Assembly: GCF_013315695.1 (NCBI RefSeq)
Contig: NZ_CP054353.1
Reading direction: 5' to 3' (one strand)
DNA length: 64,000 nucleotides
Origin: Escherichia coli
GTDB taxonomy: Bacteria; Pseudomonadota; Gammaproteobacteria; Enterobacterales; Enterobacteriaceae
The notes beneath the pieces were generated by a model, which was not told the DNA's origin, did not search any database, and was given only the letters and a program-made list of their open reading frames with translations. Position numbers and translations under genes: made by a program. Position 1 is the stretch's first letter. Every line of letters starts with the position of its first letter. This document shows, one piece after another, positions 12,729-60,404 of this stretch.

Positions 12729-12935
12729 GTAGATGCTCATTCCATCTCTTATGTTCGCCTTAGTGCCTCATAAACTCCGGAATGACGCAGAGCCGTTTAC
12801 GGTGCTTATCGTCCACTGACAGATGTCGCTTATGCCTCATCAGACACCATGGACACAACGTTGAGTGAAGCACCCACTTGTTGTCATACAGACCTGTTTT
12901 AACGCCTGCTCCGTAATAAGAGCAGGCGTTTTTTT
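12729..12935 (+). ncRNA. glmZ: GlmZ small RNA (activator of glmS translation)
   Basis: sequence GTAGATGCTCATTCCATCTCTTATGTTCGCC...AACGCCTGCTCCGTAATAAGAGCAGGCGTTTTTTT matches my recollection of GlmZ including terminator hairpin; CATAAT -10 element ~7 nt upstream. Confidence 0.85.
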
Positions 12936-13538: not shown

Positions 13539-13569
13539 TAAAAAAATATCGCCTCTGAACGAGGCGATA
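13539..13569 (-). terminator. intrinsic terminator downstream of hemY
   Basis: on minus strand: hairpin TATCGCCTC-GTTCA-GAGGCGATA followed by TTTTTTT. Confidence 0.65.
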
Positions 13570-13573
13570 TAGA

Positions 13574-28520: not shown

Positions 28521-29946
28521 TAATGCCAGTCAGTTAAGCAACTGACTGGCTCTTTTTCGGGGCTGTGGGGTATTTCCAGGGCCTCTCCTTTACCACTCTC
28601 GGGAAGGCCCTTTCCCTTCTTGTCGGTAATTTCACAAGTTGTCCCATACTTGCAAGATCGCGCATCAGCTCCGGTATACGTCCCGGTGAAGCGCCCTGCA
28701 ATGTCATCAGCATTCTCATCACCATTCCGCATGATTCTGAGAAACTCAGTTGATTCGGCCAGTAACCTTTCAGATGTTCCGCCATTTTAATCATCTGATA
28801 TCTCACCAGATTATAAGCCAGTAAGACACCCCACAGCTCTTGCTCCACAAGCTCCGGTTTTTTACTTCTCAGCGTCAGCCTGCTCAGTTGCATCGTCTGT
28901 TTTATCTCCCTGTATCCCAGTTCGATTTCCCAGCGATGACTGTACAGATCCGCCATTTCTCCTCCGGGGAAGCGCATGGCGTCCGTCATCGACGTCAGCA
29001 GATGGCAGACTTTTCCTTTGCGCGTCACGGTCAGCAGGCGGGCTGTCACTTCATTTCCCAGTCCCGGCCACTTTTTTCGTGCCTGCGGGCTGGTTTTCAG
29101 CTTCACCAGATGATCGCCTTTACCCAGTTTTCTGATCTCTTCATATTGCGCTCCCTTTCTGAGAGGTATCATCCAGTGGCGGTGTTCTCCCGCCAGGCTC
29201 CAGGCATTTAACAGTCCCAGTGAGTAATAACCTTTATCCATTAACGTCAGAGTGTTATCGCCGGTTTGTTCTATAAGTTGCTCAGCAAGCTCATTTTCGC
29301 TGTTCTTCATCGTGCCGAAGGCTGCAGCCGTCAGCAGATGGCTGGTCAGTTCCATCTGGCAGACCATTTTGACCTGCGGGTAGAGCGCCGGGTTCCCGGC
29401 ATGTGTCTGGCGGGGGAAGGCTGCATCGTTCTCTGGTGTATCCGGTGTGCGCCAGAACACACCATCGATGGCCAGCAGGGTCAGGCCGCACCAGTGCGGA
29501 TGCGGCGTGGCGTTATGCCAGAGCTGCGCTGTTTTCGTGAACACGCGGCGGACAGCCTCACTTCCCAGGCGCTGGCGGGCCTGAATAACGGCACTGGGGG
29601 CAACGAAGGGGCGATTGCCCGGCAGCATGATGTCCAGGCGATTCACAATCTGGTGAAGAGGTTCTTTACGCTCAAGCGCCATGCCAACAATACACCAGAC
29701 CATCATTTCGAGGGGAAGACGGCGCTTGCGTAGCGTTACAGTACCTGATTCGGCAAGGCAACGAGAGATGAGTTCGGGGTCGAGGTAATCCCCCAGAGAA
29801 GTCAGTGGGTTACGCAGAGAATCGTAACGGGATACCAGATCAAGAGCCTGTCCAATGTGCATAAAAAAATCCGGAAACAAGTGAGCGTTTCCGGATTCTT
29901 ACACAGCCACTGGATCGGTCAACTGATCCTTAACTGATCGGCATTA
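28521..29946 (-). mobile_element. IS4 insertion sequence (complete, 1426 bp)
   Basis: 18-bp terminal inverted repeats TAATGCCAGTCAGTTAAG / TAATGCCGATCAGTTAAG (16/18), single transposase ORF, flanked by 12-bp direct repeat. Confidence 0.9.
28534..29862 (-). CDS. insG: IS4 transposase (DDE)
   Basis: 442 aa from [20 protein letters not shown]...; matches my recollection of IS4 transposase. Confidence 0.9.
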
Positions 29947-30282: not shown

Positions 30283-30651
30283 TATAGGTCCTGGATGTGG
30301 GATTTTTTTATCCTGTTAGCGACCTTGACGAGTACCAAAAAGCGCGAAGTTCAACTATTGTTCTGTGGTGTTCTGTTGCGTGTTGACGGCAAAATTTTGC
30401 TGGCGTAACATGCGCGCACGATCACTCTAAGAGGACATTCGCCTTGGACACACCCAGTAGATACTGGCTCACTATCCTGTCATCCAGGATCAACTCCTAA
30501 GGCTATCCCTTTTTGCTGATAGCCTTAGCGGTTGTCAGCGACCTCAATTTTTCCCGTCGCGCTGAGTCAGGCTGTTTAATGGTCTGAAACCCAATTTGTT
30601 TCTGTGTGCCCACCGAACTGTCCGATATTTTAAGCATTGGGAGTCCCGGTC

Positions 30652-42198: not shown

Positions 42199-44460
42199 AT
42201 GACAATTCTTAATCACACCCTCGGTTTCCCTCGCGTTGGCCTGCGTCGCGAGCTGAAAAAAGTGCAAGAGAGTTATTGGGCGGGGAACTCCACGCGTGAA
42301 GAACTGCTGGCGGTAGGGCGTGAATTACGTGCTCGTCACTGGGATCAACAAAAGCAAGCGGGTATCGACCTGCTGCCGGTGGGCGATTTTGCCTGGTACG
42401 ATCATGTACTGACCACCAGTCTGCTGCTGGGTAATGTTCCGGCGCGTCACCAGAACAAAGATGGTTCGGTAGATATCGACACCCTGTTCCGTATTGGTCG
42501 TGGACGTGCACCGACTGGCGAACCTGCGGCGGCAGCGGAAATGACCAAATGGTTTAACACCAACTATCACTACATGGTGCCGGAGTTCGTTAAAGGCCAA
42601 CAGTTCAAACTGACCTGGACGCAGCTGCTGGAGGAAGTGGACGAGGCGCTGGCGCTGGGCCACAAGGTGAAACCTGTGCTGCTGGGGCCAGTTACCTACC
42701 TGTGGCTGGGTAAAGTGAAAGGTGAACAGTTTGATCGCCTGAGCCTGCTGAACGACATTCTGCCGGTTTATCAGCAAGTGCTGGCAGAACTGGCGAAACG
42801 CGGCATCGAGTGGGTACAGATTGATGAACCCGCGCTGGTACTGGAACTGCCGCAGGCGTGGCTGGACGCATACAAACCCGCTTACGACGCGCTCCAGGGA
42901 CAGGTGAAACTGCTGCTGACCACCTATTTTGAAGGCGTAACGCCAAATCTCGACACGATTACTGCGCTGCCTGTTCAGGGTCTGCATGTCGATCTCGTAC
43001 ATGGTAAAGATGACGTTGCTGAACTGCACAAGCGTCTGCCTTCTGACTGGCTGCTGTCTGCGGGTCTTATCAATGGTCGTAACGTCTGGCGCGCCGATCT
43101 TACCGAGAAATATGCGCAAATTAAGGACATTGTTGGCAAACGTGATTTGTGGGTGGCATCTTCCTGCTCATTGCTGCACAGCCCTATCGACCTGAGCGTG
43201 GAAACGCGTCTTGATGCAGAAGTGAAAAGCTGGTTTGCCTTCGCCCTGCAAAAATGTCATGAACTGGCATTGCTGCGCGATGCGTTGAACAGTGGTGATA
43301 CGGCAGCTCTGGCAGAGTGGAGCGCTCCGATTCAGGCGCGTCGTCACTCTACTCGTGTACATAATCCGGCAGTAGAAAAGCGTCTGGCGGCGATCACCGC
43401 TCAGGACAGTCAGCGTGCGAATGTCTATGAAGTGCGTGCTGAAGCCCAGCGTGCGCGTTTTAAACTGCCCGCGTGGCCGACCACCACGATTGGTTCCTTC
43501 CCGCAAACCACGGAGATTCGTACCCTGCGTCTGGATTTTAAAAAGGGTAATCTCGACGCCAATAACTACCGCACGGGCATTGCGGAACATATCAAGCAGG
43601 CCATTGTTGAGCAGGAACGTTTGGGACTGGATGTGCTGGTACATGGCGAGGCCGAGCGTAATGACATGGTGGAATACTTTGGCGAGCATCTGGATGGCTT
43701 TGTCTTTACGCAAAACGGTTGGGTACAGAGCTACGGTTCCCGCTGCGTGAAGCCACCGATTGTTATTGGTGACGTTAGCCGCCCGGCACCGATTACCGTG
43801 GAGTGGGCAAAATATGCGCAATCCCTGACTGATAAACCGGTGAAAGGGATGTTGACCGGCCCGGTGACTATTCTCTGCTGGTCGTTCCCGCGTGAAGATG
43901 TCAGCCGTGAAACCATCGCCAAACAAATTGCGCTGGCGCTGCGTGATGAAGTGGCGGACCTGGAAGCCGCTGGAATTGGCATCATCCAGATTGATGAACC
44001 GGCGCTGCGCGAAGGTTTACCGCTGCGTCGTAGCGACTGGGATGCATATCTCCAGTGGGGCGTAGAGGCCTTCCGTATCAATGCCGCTGTAGCGAAAGAT
44101 GACACGCAAATCCACACCCACATGTGTTATTGCGAGTTCAACGACATCATGGATTCGATTGCGGCGCTGGACGCAGACGTCATCACCATCGAAACCTCGC
44201 GTTCCGACATGGAGTTGCTGGAGTCGTTTGAAGAGTTTGATTATCCAAATGAAATTGGTCCAGGCGTCTATGACATTCACTCGCCAAACGTACCGAGCGT
44301 GGAATGGATTGAAGCCTTGCTGAAGAAAGCGGCAAAACGCATTCCGGCAGAGCGTCTGTGGGTCAACCCGGACTGTGGCCTGAAAACGCGCGGCTGGCCA
44401 GAAACCCGCGCGGCACTGGCGAACATGGTGCAGGCGGCGCAGAATTTGCGTCGGGGATGA
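42199..44460 (+). CDS. metE: cobalamin-independent methionine synthase
   Basis: 753 aa [21 protein letters not shown]... Confidence 0.95.
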
Positions 44461-44498
44461 CGAATATTAACTAGTCACTGTAAATTGCAGTACGATAA

Positions 44499-44526
44499 TG
44501 GCTTCCAGCACTGGAAGCCATTTTGC
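44499..44526 (+). terminator. intrinsic terminator after metE
   Basis: TGGCTTCCAG-CA-CTGGAAGCCA hairpin followed by TTTTGCT. Confidence 0.75.
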
Positions 44527-44553
44527 TATGTATGCCAGGTATGATGTGGATCT

Positions 44554-45450
44554 TCAGGAACAGAAAATTAATTGCGGATTTCTTAAATATTCTATGCACC
44601 ACTGACAGGCTTTGCCCATACCATCGGAACGAGCGGCAAGAAATAACTTGGTGGCGTGTTTATGTTCGCGCATTGGCTTTTTAAGCAATTTACCGCTGTT
44701 CAATAACGGCAATGCCAGATGATGTGGAATATAACCAATACCGACGTTTTGTTCTATTAAGGCGATTGCCGTAGCGAAGTCAGGAACAAAAATGGGTTTT
44801 TGTCCTTCCAACAACCAGGCTTGCATCGGGGGGAAGTTAACGGAGGTATCGCGGATACAAACCGCTGGATAATGACGCAATTCACTGTTTTCTAATGGAT
44901 GCCGCTTCGCTGCCAGTGGGTGGAGTGGGCTGACGACAAAATCCCATTCCATTTGTCCGACCGGTTCGCTAATGATGCCTTCACTGCTTGGCACTGCATG
45001 AGGAGCACCGTAGACCAGATCGGCACGCTTACTGTACAGCGCATCCCAGCAGCCGTTGTATACCTCAAGATCTACCGTCAGTGTTGTTGATGTGAATTGC
45101 CGTTCAAAATCTCGAATAAATGCCACCAGCAAATCACCAGGAATAATATTGTTCACCGCAATTGTCAGTTCACGCTCAATACCATCGTGAATCAGCACTG
45201 TGTTGCGCTTTAATGCTTCCAGGTCGCCAAGAATAGTTTTGCTATGTTCGATGAAGTAACTTCCCGCTGGCGATAATTCAATATAGCGTCCCTTACGAAT
45301 GAACAGTTCAACGCCCAGGCTCTCTTCCGCTTTCTTGATGGTGTAACTGATAGCGGAAGGGACTTTATTTAACTGCTCGGCTGCGGTGGTAATGCTCTGG
45401 TGTCTGGCGACCAGATGAATAACACGAAGCGTTTCGTCTGAGATGAACAT
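44554..45450 (-). CDS. LysR-family transcriptional regulator
   Basis: 298 aa; N-terminal wHTH (ITTAAEQLNKVPSAISYTIKKAEESLGVELF) and LysR substrate-binding domain. Confidence 0.8.
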   Translation of the reverse strand: MFISDETLRVIHLVARHQSITTAAEQLNKVPSAISYTIKKAEESLGVELFIRKGRYIELSPAGSYFIEHSKTILGDLEALKRNTVLIHDGIERELTIAVNNIIPGDLLVAFIRDFERQFTSTTLTVDLEVYNGCWDALYSKRADLVYGAPHAVPSSEGIISEPVGQMEWDFVVSPLHPLAAKRHPLENSELRHYPAVCIRDTSVNFPPMQAWLLEGQKPIFVPDFATAIALIEQNVGIGYIPHHLALPLLNSGKLLKKPMREHKHATKLFLAARSDGMGKACQWCIEYLRNPQLIFCS

Positions 45451-45527
45451 AAGGCTCCCTGGTCAGTGGTAAAGTGGCTGAATCTCTCCAGATTCAGCCG
45501 TAATCATTGCCTGAGTATACCCAGGAA

Positions 45528-46751
45528 TTAGCGGTGTTGACTTGCCTGACTGAGAATCGCATACGCGATACATGCCACCAGAATCGAGTCTACCGAAGGG
45601 ATCGTCGTCAGGGTGAATAAGCCTTTTACGGTCATAAAGCCAACCGCTGCGCCTATGATCCATGCTGCGAATGTCAGCACTTTAATCTGTGACTCCTGGG
45701 CTAACACTGACTCTTGATAGCCATTACGGCGATAAAGGAAAAAGTCAGCGATATAAATTCCGGCAACGGGTGGCGTGGCGATACCCAGGAACAGCAGAAA
45801 CGGAATAAACCACGCCATAATATCCATACTGCCTACGATGGCGGAAAGGATACCCAGCGCCACGGTAATCTGCCATTTGGGAAAGCGGGTAAGCAGTGTG
45901 GAAACCACCAGCGTGCCCTGGAACATATTGCCCGCGTTACCGGTGACGCAGGCGAAAATCAACAACAGCGCCGCAGGCAGAACCGCACCGAATACCGCCA
46001 TCGCACCCAGTAAAGATCCCTGACCACTAATGGCGCTCGGCGTTGCACCCGCCCAGTAGAGCAGAGGGTAGGCAACCAGAAACGTCACGCCTGCGGCAAT
46101 CAGCGCATGTTTGCGGTTATGTACAAAACTACCGAAATCAGGCAGTGTGGCAACCAGCACAATAATGGTGCCAACAACGGTGGAAACGGCGACACCTGTA
46201 TTCATCTCCACAATCGCCGCTGGTACTGCCACTTCGGTATGGGTTGCCACATAGAGGATGTAACACAGCACCAGCGCGATAACCGGCACGGCAACCTGGG
46301 CAATTTTTCCCAGAACGGCAAAGCCAAATGCCGTAGAGGCGACAAAAATGACACAGCCAGCCGCCACTAACAGTGCCAGTGGAACTTCCAGTCCATGTTG
46401 AGCCAGTAAGTCATGTACCGAATGACCAAACATATTGGCGGTAACGGCAATCCAGCCGAACAGACTTATCGCCATCAAAATGTTAATGGCGATGGCCCCT
46501 TTTTCGCCAAACGAATATTTCACAATGCCATACGTTGGTAGGCGGGCTTTTTCTCCCACGCTAATGGTGATGGCTGAAAGTAAGGTCAGAATGACGCCGC
46601 CTAACAATACGACGCTAATTAAACTGCCGCTGGAAAGTTGATTGCCGAGGCTTGAGGATGACAACAGCACAGGTGTGACGGCAATACCCAGCAAAATCAT
46701 GGCAATACGCAATCCTGATGCCGTATTCAGATTCTCTTCTTTTTTACGCAT
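45528..46751 (-). CDS. NCS1-family (CodB-like cytosine/nucleobase) permease
   Basis: 407 aa polytopic; resembles CodB architecture (…VGEKARLPTYGIVKYSFGEKGA…). Confidence 0.7.
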   Translation of the reverse strand: MRKKEENLNTASGLRIAMILLGIAVTPVLLSSSSLGNQLSSGSLISVVLLGGVILTLLSAITISVGEKARLPTYGIVKYSFGEKGAIAINILMAISLFGWIAVTANMFGHSVHDLLAQHGLEVPLALLVAAGCVIFVASTAFGFAVLGKIAQVAVPVIALVLCYILYVATHTEVAVPAAIVEMNTGVAVSTVVGTIIVLVATLPDFGSFVHNRKHALIAAGVTFLVAYPLLYWAGATPSAISGQGSLLGAMAVFGAVLPAALLLIFACVTGNAGNMFQGTLVVSTLLTRFPKWQITVALGILSAIVGSMDIMAWFIPFLLFLGIATPPVAGIYIADFFLYRRNGYQESVLAQESQIKVLTFAAWIIGAAVGFMTVKGLFTLTTIPSVDSILVACIAYAILSQASQHR

Positions 46752-52741: not shown

Positions 52742-52997
52742 GGTAAATCTCCTGTCTGATGTTTAAACGATCCAGTTGTTCTGAGAACGAGTATTCAGGA
52801 GAAAAGCGGCACAAAACAGGAAAAAAGTTTGCCGCACAGCAACGAAATTTTTGCATTCAGCAGGTGGTGTGATGACGAATGTGAAGGGAGTCAAAGAGTG
52901 GCATACAGCAACAAATTTTTTGATGCTGTATGGTTTTGAGATTAAAAAAATCGTTGAAATTGTGTGAGCTTAATCATCAGATTTAGCGACTATGGCG

Positions 52998-60366: not shown

Positions 60367-60404
60367 TATCCCACAATATAAACTCCATCTCATATTGTGG
60401 GATA
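60367..60404. promoter_or_regulatory. candidate operator: 13-bp perfect inverted repeat with 12-bp spacer
   Basis: TATCCCACAATAT-N12-ATATTGTGGGATA located 61-98 bp upstream of the IclR start. Confidence 0.4.

Follow-up and report, generated by a model that had tools for sequence, protein, structure and literature searches.

Intercistronic stem-loops that act as barriers to mRNA decay have their paradigms in the malE-malF REP element and in the puf operon of Rhodobacter. Other junctions sequester the Shine-Dalgarno (SD) sequence of the downstream gene in a structure and couple translation of the two genes by unmasking this sequence, as is the case for rpmI-rplT in the infC operon and for the coat and replicase genes of MS2. 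In the xylFGHR operon of Escherichia coli K-12, the regulator gene is found at the 3' end of the operon that it accompanies and is equipped with a weak private promoter. Finally, LysR-type regulators commonly autoregulate their expression via dyad sites.

The junction described here, between an NCS1 permease gene and a lysR gene of E. coli, can be compared with each of these systems. As with the malE-malF REP and the puf operon, a hairpin devoid of a U-run is located between cistrons, an arrangement in which the upstream genes could be expressed more, but the lysR-junction hairpin differs from REP/BIME elements by its presence in one copy per genome, and its role as a decay barrier is only putative. 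It resembles intrinsic terminators and internal attenuators in being a stable stem-loop that occurs soon after a stop codon and before the next gene, the difference being that in the E. coli clade there is no U-tract and that the stem is selected even when its tail contains only 1–2 U. As in rpmI-rplT and MS2, the SD of the downstream gene is placed opposite a complementary segment located where the upstream ORF ends, with which it is predicted to pair; here, however, the helix has 5–7 bp and is held over ~55 nt by the intervening hairpin, and a promoter-like box is embedded in the predicted structure. The xylFGHR operon provides the same layout of a co-oriented activator gene at the operon end, potentially reached by read-through and served by a private promoter, whereas the lysR junction has a conserved structured RNA and the regulator families are unrelated. 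As for LysR operators with their T-N11-A dyad, the likeness lies in a dyad adjoining a LysR gene, and covariation, the strand bias of G·U pairs and geometry set the two apart. The junction hairpin is a new, clade-specific element of a well-known intercistronic kind, which was not previously described.

The permease-lysR junction and its accessory island

The window, i.e. the whole stretch of 64,000 nucleotides of E. coli chromosomal DNA analyzed here (contig NZ_CP054353.1), encodes on its minus strand a permease (ORF 45528–46751, stop codon UAA at 45528–45530) and, downstream of it, a LysR protein (ORF 44554–45450, ATG at 45450–45448). Pfam assigns the permease to PF02133 (NCS1) and the regulator to HTH_1 plus LysR_substrate, and the N terminus of the latter, MFISDETLRV, is kept in orthologues. 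These ORF coordinates leave a gap of 77 bp (45451–45527), in which the original prediction had placed a perfect hairpin with a 10-bp stem; direct reading of the sequence at 45476–45499, whose plus-strand letters are GGCTGAATCTCTCCAGATTCAGCC, confirms both the gap and the hairpin, GGCTGAATCT-CTCC-AGATTCAGCC, with its loop of 4 nt. On the mRNA strand, the hairpin reads GGCUGAAUCU-GGAG-AGAUUCAGCC, with a dG of -15.7 kcal/mol, and constitutes the apical stem-loop (helix H3; minus strand, 45476–45499) of the structure discussed below, for which direct sequence, RNAalifold prediction and covariation provide the evidence. It sits after the stop codon, its stem rests on three G-C pairs, and its 3' foot is followed 25 nt downstream by the lysR start codon (minus strand, 45448–45450).

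The E. coli stems comprise 10–11 bp on a GGC/GCC base, with dG values from -15.7 to -18.1 kcal/mol, strain E69 having an additional 11th C-G pair. A region of 101 nt folds with a z of -2.55, one of 200 shuffled sequences being equally stable. The hairpin is identical in 1615 of the 1618 E. coli records carrying the element and is found at a median of one place per genome, always inside the island presented below. No second copy was found in the window with up to three mismatches allowed, and a REP/BIME element or another dispersed palindromic repeat is ruled out by this single-copy status. A permissive Rfam scan of positions 44300–46000 against 4227 families returned nothing over the hairpin and two chance-level eukaryotic matches, both off the hairpin, so that a known RNA family was rejected. 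Furthermore, a covariance model built from 14 spacers (R1) retrieves no other site than this one in the window, with 84 bits, its matches in Serratia being marginal only.

The window contains 8 distinct sites with a perfect hairpin whose stem reaches 10 bp or more; the raw scan gave 14 records versus a mean of 1.0 in dinucleotide shuffles, nested stem and loop versions of one site being counted as separate records. Six further perfect hairpins, with stems of 10–13 bp, are located at 12901–12930, 13546–13570, 28525–28550, 29868–29897, 30497–30528 and 60367–60404. In addition, a perfect 12-bp hairpin, AATGGCTTCCAG-CA-CTGGAAGCCATT, followed by TTTGC on the plus strand, occupies positions 44497–44522 between the convergent stops of metE (44460) and lysR (44554). 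This hairpin evidently serves as the metE terminator; it is also the sole strong structure available to end lysR transcripts, but has no T-run on the minus strand.

The spacer belongs to an accessory island of eight genes, all on the minus strand, located between metE and ysgA and encoding a cysteine hydrolase, an AllH-family protein, FdrA, a YlbE-family protein, a carbamate kinase, a protein with an allophanate-hydrolase C-domain (AH_C), the NCS1 permease and LysR. The island appears to encode the breakdown of a carbamoyl or ureido compound, and the operon that ends with lysR is presumably under LysR control, an unusual position for the regulator gene. It is carried by 1555 of 5426 complete E. 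coli genomes (~29%), and its carriers include LF82, NC101, ST131 strains, an E. coli B derivative and ~125 plasmids; many are B2/ExPEC strains, others being E. coli B derivatives and the large plasmids. The ~125 plasmid records correspond to large E. coli plasmids (~190 kb), most of which come from poultry; on them, remnants of IS and Tn elements and a gene for cytochrome b562 flank the island. One of them, pEND_Eco 19035-1 (NZ_CP126927.1), carries the whole eight-gene island with an identical spacer and hairpin. Because it is found on large plasmids with IS and Tn sequences at its flanks, the island is taken to be mobile.

The single literature mention that we found concerns region GR 29 of an avian pathogenic strain, which was left uncharacterized with a speculation on pyrimidine nitrogen and with nothing on regulation, and no usable TSS or Term-seq data were found in the literature on island-bearing strains. 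Upstream of the first island gene (~52790–52990, minus strand), the operon-promoter region contains a palindrome, CATACAGCA-N13-TGCTGTATG (ACAGCA-N13-TGCTGT), and a motif, CAAAAA(A)TTT(C)GTTGCTGT, present twice in the same orientation. The sequences of these repeats bear no relation to that of the hairpin, and they are candidate operators through which LysR would act on the operon promoter; as exact copies of the ACAGCA-N13-TGCTGT palindrome were absent from the other loci retrieved, an operator consensus could not be built.

Conservation of the stem-loop and of its genomic context

A single scan of species-representative genomes with the LysR protein yielded 47 loci, and a pattern scan of metagenomes added three further E. 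coli-type spacers. Sets of 11 and 14 orthologous spacers were aligned with MAFFT on the basis of sequence, structure not being used, and RNAalifold predicts three nested helices on these alignments. The apical helix exhibits compensatory changes on both sides in 8 of its 11 pairs, and 95% of its cells are paired over the 14 spacers. For the whole structure, 94% and 90% of the cells are paired with 11 and 14 spacers, respectively, as compared with 22–50% when the 3' partner columns are slid by 1–3 columns. Altogether, both-side changes affect 12 pairs, and neither the pairing nor the covariation of the real alignments was reached in any of 500 shuffles. Within E. coli, the spacer hardly varies, and polymorphism in this species offers no source of covariation.

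Most loci with the permease-then-lysR order have a compact hairpin of altered sequence at the same position, as illustrated by Edwardsiella (CGGCUGAACCC-AUACC-GGGUUCAGCCG), Buttiauxella (GUGGUCUGGUUC-AGGAA-GAAUCAGGCCAC), Citrobacter sp. 18056 (GUGGCUUAAC...GUUAAGCCAC) and Serratia (CUGCCAGC...GCUGGCAG). On the mRNA strand, the non-Watson-Crick cells consist of 15 G·U pairs and 12 mismatches versus 3 G·U pairs and 24 mismatches on the opposite strand, in a comparison for which the structure had been predicted on the sense strand. The prevalence of G·U among the departures from Watson-Crick pairing, when the mRNA strand is considered, leads us to read the palindrome as a sense-strand RNA structure. 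A chance palindrome is ruled out by cross-genus conservation together with covariation and, on these comparative grounds, the palindrome is a conserved stem-loop predicted to fold on the sense transcript, neither a chance match nor a DNA operator. Contig CACSKA010000007.1 (L012), labelled Chryseobacterium sp. 18061, does not differ from Citrobacter sp. 18056 (L011) in its spacer and genes, and this assembly is probably mislabelled or contaminated.

The position of lysR as last gene, after the permease, is kept in Enterobacterales, in Burkholderiales with Caballeronia and Paraburkholderia, in Dyella and in Silvimonas. Gene order is inverted between lineages (L035–L039 and L042–L044 versus L002–L034), lysR coming first, before the cysteine hydrolase gene, in Vibrio, Photobacterium, Shewanella, Motilimonas and Halomonas; these lysR-first loci have a clear CATATAAT -10 box ~35–40 nt before the start codon. 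A compact hairpin with a stability of -12.8 to -30 kcal/mol is found at all enterobacterial junction loci and at most other loci having a co-oriented upstream gene, 21–37 nt before the AUG, this distance being 21–25 nt across the E. coli clade. In the 13 loci where lysR is in another situation (8 lysR-first and 5 in other contexts), no strong hairpin was found in the 100 nt before the lysR start, the best ones ranging from -3.4 to -12 kcal/mol.

Two Serratia loci illustrate this dependence on context. In Serratia sp. DD3, an extra gene for a 534-aa membrane transporter (L024, 2308–3912) separates the NCS1 permease gene from lysR, and the unit formed by the -10 box and the hairpin stays directly upstream of lysR, behind a co-oriented gene. 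In Serratia microhaemolytica, lysR stands alone beside a divergent cydAB; the -10-like box persists without an upstream operon and the strong hairpin is gone. Since the hairpin follows the co-oriented upstream gene, it would act on RNA or transcription arriving from upstream, and this distribution weakens the idea of a mere stabilizer for the message of lysR itself.

Predicted pairing of the lysR Shine-Dalgarno region, and a promoter-like box

Folding predictions suggest that the hairpin is the tip of a larger structure, covering the ~75-nt intercistronic region, in which the lysR SD is paired. Indeed, a longer, irregular stem with the hairpin as its tip is obtained in the MFE fold of 9 of 11 spacers and in the alifold consensus. 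Its basal helix, H1, associates an anti-SD strand, UUCCUGG (minus strand, 45521–45527), with the sequence CCAGGGA of the lysR SD region (minus strand, 45456–45462), both strands being supported by MFE, alifold, covariation and a duplex test. The anti-SD strand is directly adjoined by the permease stop codon (UAA, minus strand, 45528–45530), which is located one nucleotide before an invariant TCC in 14 of 14 aligned sequences. The 4-bp core of H1 is paired in all 14 sequences, one U-A pair being replaced by C-G in five of them (Edwardsiella, the B. izardii group and metagenome locus L056). In the duplex test, the mean is -10.1 kcal/mol for own strands versus -9.0 kcal/mol for strands swapped between species, with 70 of 5000 permutations as good (p ~0.014), for a helix that is short (5–7 bp) and half of which is an SD sequence conserved anyway. 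In the E. coli variant CCAGGAA (GGGAG to GGAAG), which is the only common polymorphism of the spacer, a U·G pair becomes U-A.

The middle helix, H2, pairs UCAG (minus strand, 45511–45514, in this allele) with CUGA (minus strand, 45463–45466) in the MFE and alifold predictions, and in other genera its partners are UUGGCA:UGCCAA or UGCGU:ACGCA; in the duplex test, which was also applied to the CUGA strand, H2 was not significant, 777 of 5000 permutations being as good. In Serratia, the basal helix differs (AACAUAAUGA:UCAUUAUGUU, with a G·U variant included) and buries the start codon, and the presumed own transcript of lysR would still carry the occluding strand.

The SD accessibility predicted with 30 nt of coding sequence is, for the window allele, 0.28 in the read-through RNA versus 0.31 in the own transcript, and the mean predicted SD accessibility over 14 sequences is 0.22 versus 0.42. 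A freer SD in the own-promoter transcript was rejected for E. coli, as neither allele shows a difference. In the fold of the window allele that includes this coding sequence, the anti-SD strand has a preferred alternative partner nearby, CUCAGG. E. coli CFE299 (NZ_OZ465017.1) naturally lacks 9 bp, TAATTCCTG, so that the permease stop and most of the anti-SD strand are lost and the permease is longer by 5 codons; this strain is a natural mutant lacking most of the anti-SD strand of the basal helix.

Between the anti-SD strand and the hairpin lies a -10-like hexamer, TATACT (minus strand, 45514–45519), within a block strongly conserved in alignments A1–A3; most other genera have GGGTATAAT at this box. 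We infer that this candidate serves lysR as the -10 box of a promoter of its own. The TATACT box is not accompanied by a -35 match, and the promoter scan gives no call.

Other features of the spacer were examined and set aside. A 14-codon uORF (MITAESGEIQPLYH followed by a stop), from an AUG at 45507 to a UGA ending at 45463 on the minus strand, spans the hairpin; it is regarded as a chance ORF because neither E. coli E69 nor any of the other genera has this AUG. A 66-aa ORF (45463–45663) is not regarded as coding, since the spacer that it crosses carries indels. A CsrA site was also rejected, GGA being present in the apical loop of only 6 of 14 sequences (alignment A3); loops with GGA from several lineages (GGAG, GGAU, AGGAA and AGGAU), combined with the GGA of the SD, resemble the geometry of CsrA targets.

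Possible roles of the junction hairpin

The reading that we favor, with somewhat less than even confidence, is that of a post-transcriptional junction insulator limiting regulator output from the operon RNA. We infer an effect on translation or decay, and likewise the promoter with its start site and the direction of the regulation, in the following way. The stem-loop would form in the minus-strand transcript where the catabolic operon runs into lysR. In the read-through RNA, in which the anti-SD strand is present, the fold would close the lysR ribosome-binding site, and the stable U-less hairpin would clamp this SD-closing fold. The hairpin may also act, independently of a U-tract, as a barrier against the 3'-to-5' decay or processing that the operon mRNA undergoes, or as the point where it ends. 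Upon induction of the operon, regulator output would thereby stay low, LysR being mainly produced from its own weak promoter (-10 TATACT), the transcript of which would be free of the anti-SD strand. In a variant of this scheme, UUCCUGG would be covered and opened by ribosomes that end permease translation at the UAA, and permease translation would gate lysR translation.

The original prediction was that the hairpin could attenuate read-through from the operon into the regulator gene. This idea stands in so far as the structure belongs to the RNA of the transcribed strand, is tied to the junction and has U-run terminators as counterparts in some homologues, but it does not hold as a classical terminator in the E. 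coli clade. Not mentioned in the original prediction were the larger fold predicted to pair the lysR ribosome-binding site, the conserved -10-like box a short way upstream and the minus-strand orientation of the genes. In the form of a leaky intrinsic terminator or attenuator, at which a fraction of the RNA polymerases coming from the operon or from a nearby upstream promoter would stop before lysR and keep the regulator low, it remains somewhat unlikely in our opinion. The position of the hairpin after a stop codon, its three basal G-C pairs and its occurrence only where upstream transcription can enter lysR all agree with such a role, as does the distance of 21–37 nt to the AUG, which leaves no promoter room past the hairpin and implies that every lysR transcript passes through it. 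Furthermore, canonical terminators are found at the same position in Rahnella (13-bp stem then U7), Silvimonas (AAAACCCGCAC...GUGCGGGUUUUUUU), Enterobacter sp. CC120223-11 (U6) and one Caballeronia (Caballeronia sp. BR, UUUUUGUUU), and limiting read-through into the regulator may reasonably be seen as the ancestral or general role. However, the T-run that the original prediction had noted as lacking is indeed absent: the E. coli transcribed-strand tail, ACUUUACC, has 3 U in 8 nt, with nT values of 0.9–1.5 (0.90 for the window allele), members of the E. coli clade have 1–4 U among the 8 nt that follow the stem, and the site is not listed by a terminator scan requiring at least 5 T in 8. Of the features expected of intrinsic terminators, the stable G+C-containing stem is present and the U-rich tract (~5 or more U in 8 nt) is not. 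A terminator discriminant, of qualitative use only, is negative for every clade member, with values of -37 in the case of the window allele and -22 in that of E69; the automatic stem picker takes in A/U-tract pairs in some species. Moreover, in Buttiauxella and Citrobacter sp. 18056, compensatory changes preserve the stems despite tails with 1–2 U. As compensatory changes keep the stem in this U-poor clade, the function selected there would be independent of a U-tract, and classical intrinsic termination, as judged from the sequences, cannot be the selected function in the E. coli clade; weak or factor-assisted termination may take place there. A leaky terminator would also leave the covarying anti-SD:SD helix unexplained. 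A trade-off across species between terminator and ribosome-binding-site occlusion was rejected, as U-tract strength and accessibility of the translation-initiation region are not correlated over 26 loci (rho 0.17, p 0.42).

The hairpin could alternatively be an element of the 5'-UTR of a lysR mRNA starting just past the TATACT/CATAAT boxes, where the stem-loop would counter RppH/RNase E or tune ribosome loading. The conservation of the -10-like box 12–25 nt upstream of the stem, the hairpin-AUG distance fixed at 21–25 nt and a 10-nt deletion in B. izardii that puts the -10 box right against the stem are in line with this proposal, which nevertheless appears improbable: lysR orthologues that head the operon or stand alone keep the box without the hairpin, so that the hairpin tracks the upstream operon and not the lysR message, and the covariation with sequence upstream of the -10 box is left unexplained. 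As to a DNA operator, a 24-bp palindrome bound by LysR for autoregulation or by another dimeric transcription factor, it would account for a perfect dyad adjoining a LysR gene but is scarcely credible. Indeed, the half-sites diverge among orthologues whose regulators are 80–88% identical, their complementarity being kept, and the G·U departures concern one strand only. In addition, an even-centered palindrome cannot hold a centered T-N11-A motif, the operon promoter region has different repeats and no copy of the hairpin sequence, and loci in which lysR heads the operon lack the palindrome. Covariation, strand-biased G·U pairs and an operon promoter devoid of any related sequence argue for rejecting a LysR operator.

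Besides the junction insulator that we favor, a more elaborate arrangement can be envisaged, in which LysR would be under a dual-input control. On the operon mRNA, a long-range helix clamped by the hairpin would lock the lysR ribosome-binding site, and since the 5' strand of this helix would lie within the footprint of a ribosome terminating on the permease gene, unmasking would make LysR synthesis from induced transcripts proportional to permease translation; the embedded promoter would give a constitutively open transcript. We consider it unlikely. If true, it would represent a distinct way to limit positive feedback for an activator whose gene closes the operon to which it belongs, and would have taken the place of the plain terminator that Rahnella and Silvimonas retain.

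The lysR junction provides a natural example of a hairpin that has no U-tract in one clade and is still selected, and as such bears on U-less junction hairpins. For studies on the regulation of the island, it means that lysR expression should be analyzed at the RNA level, with read-through transcripts separated from private ones, and that deletion or relocation of the spacer probably changes the dosage of the regulator.
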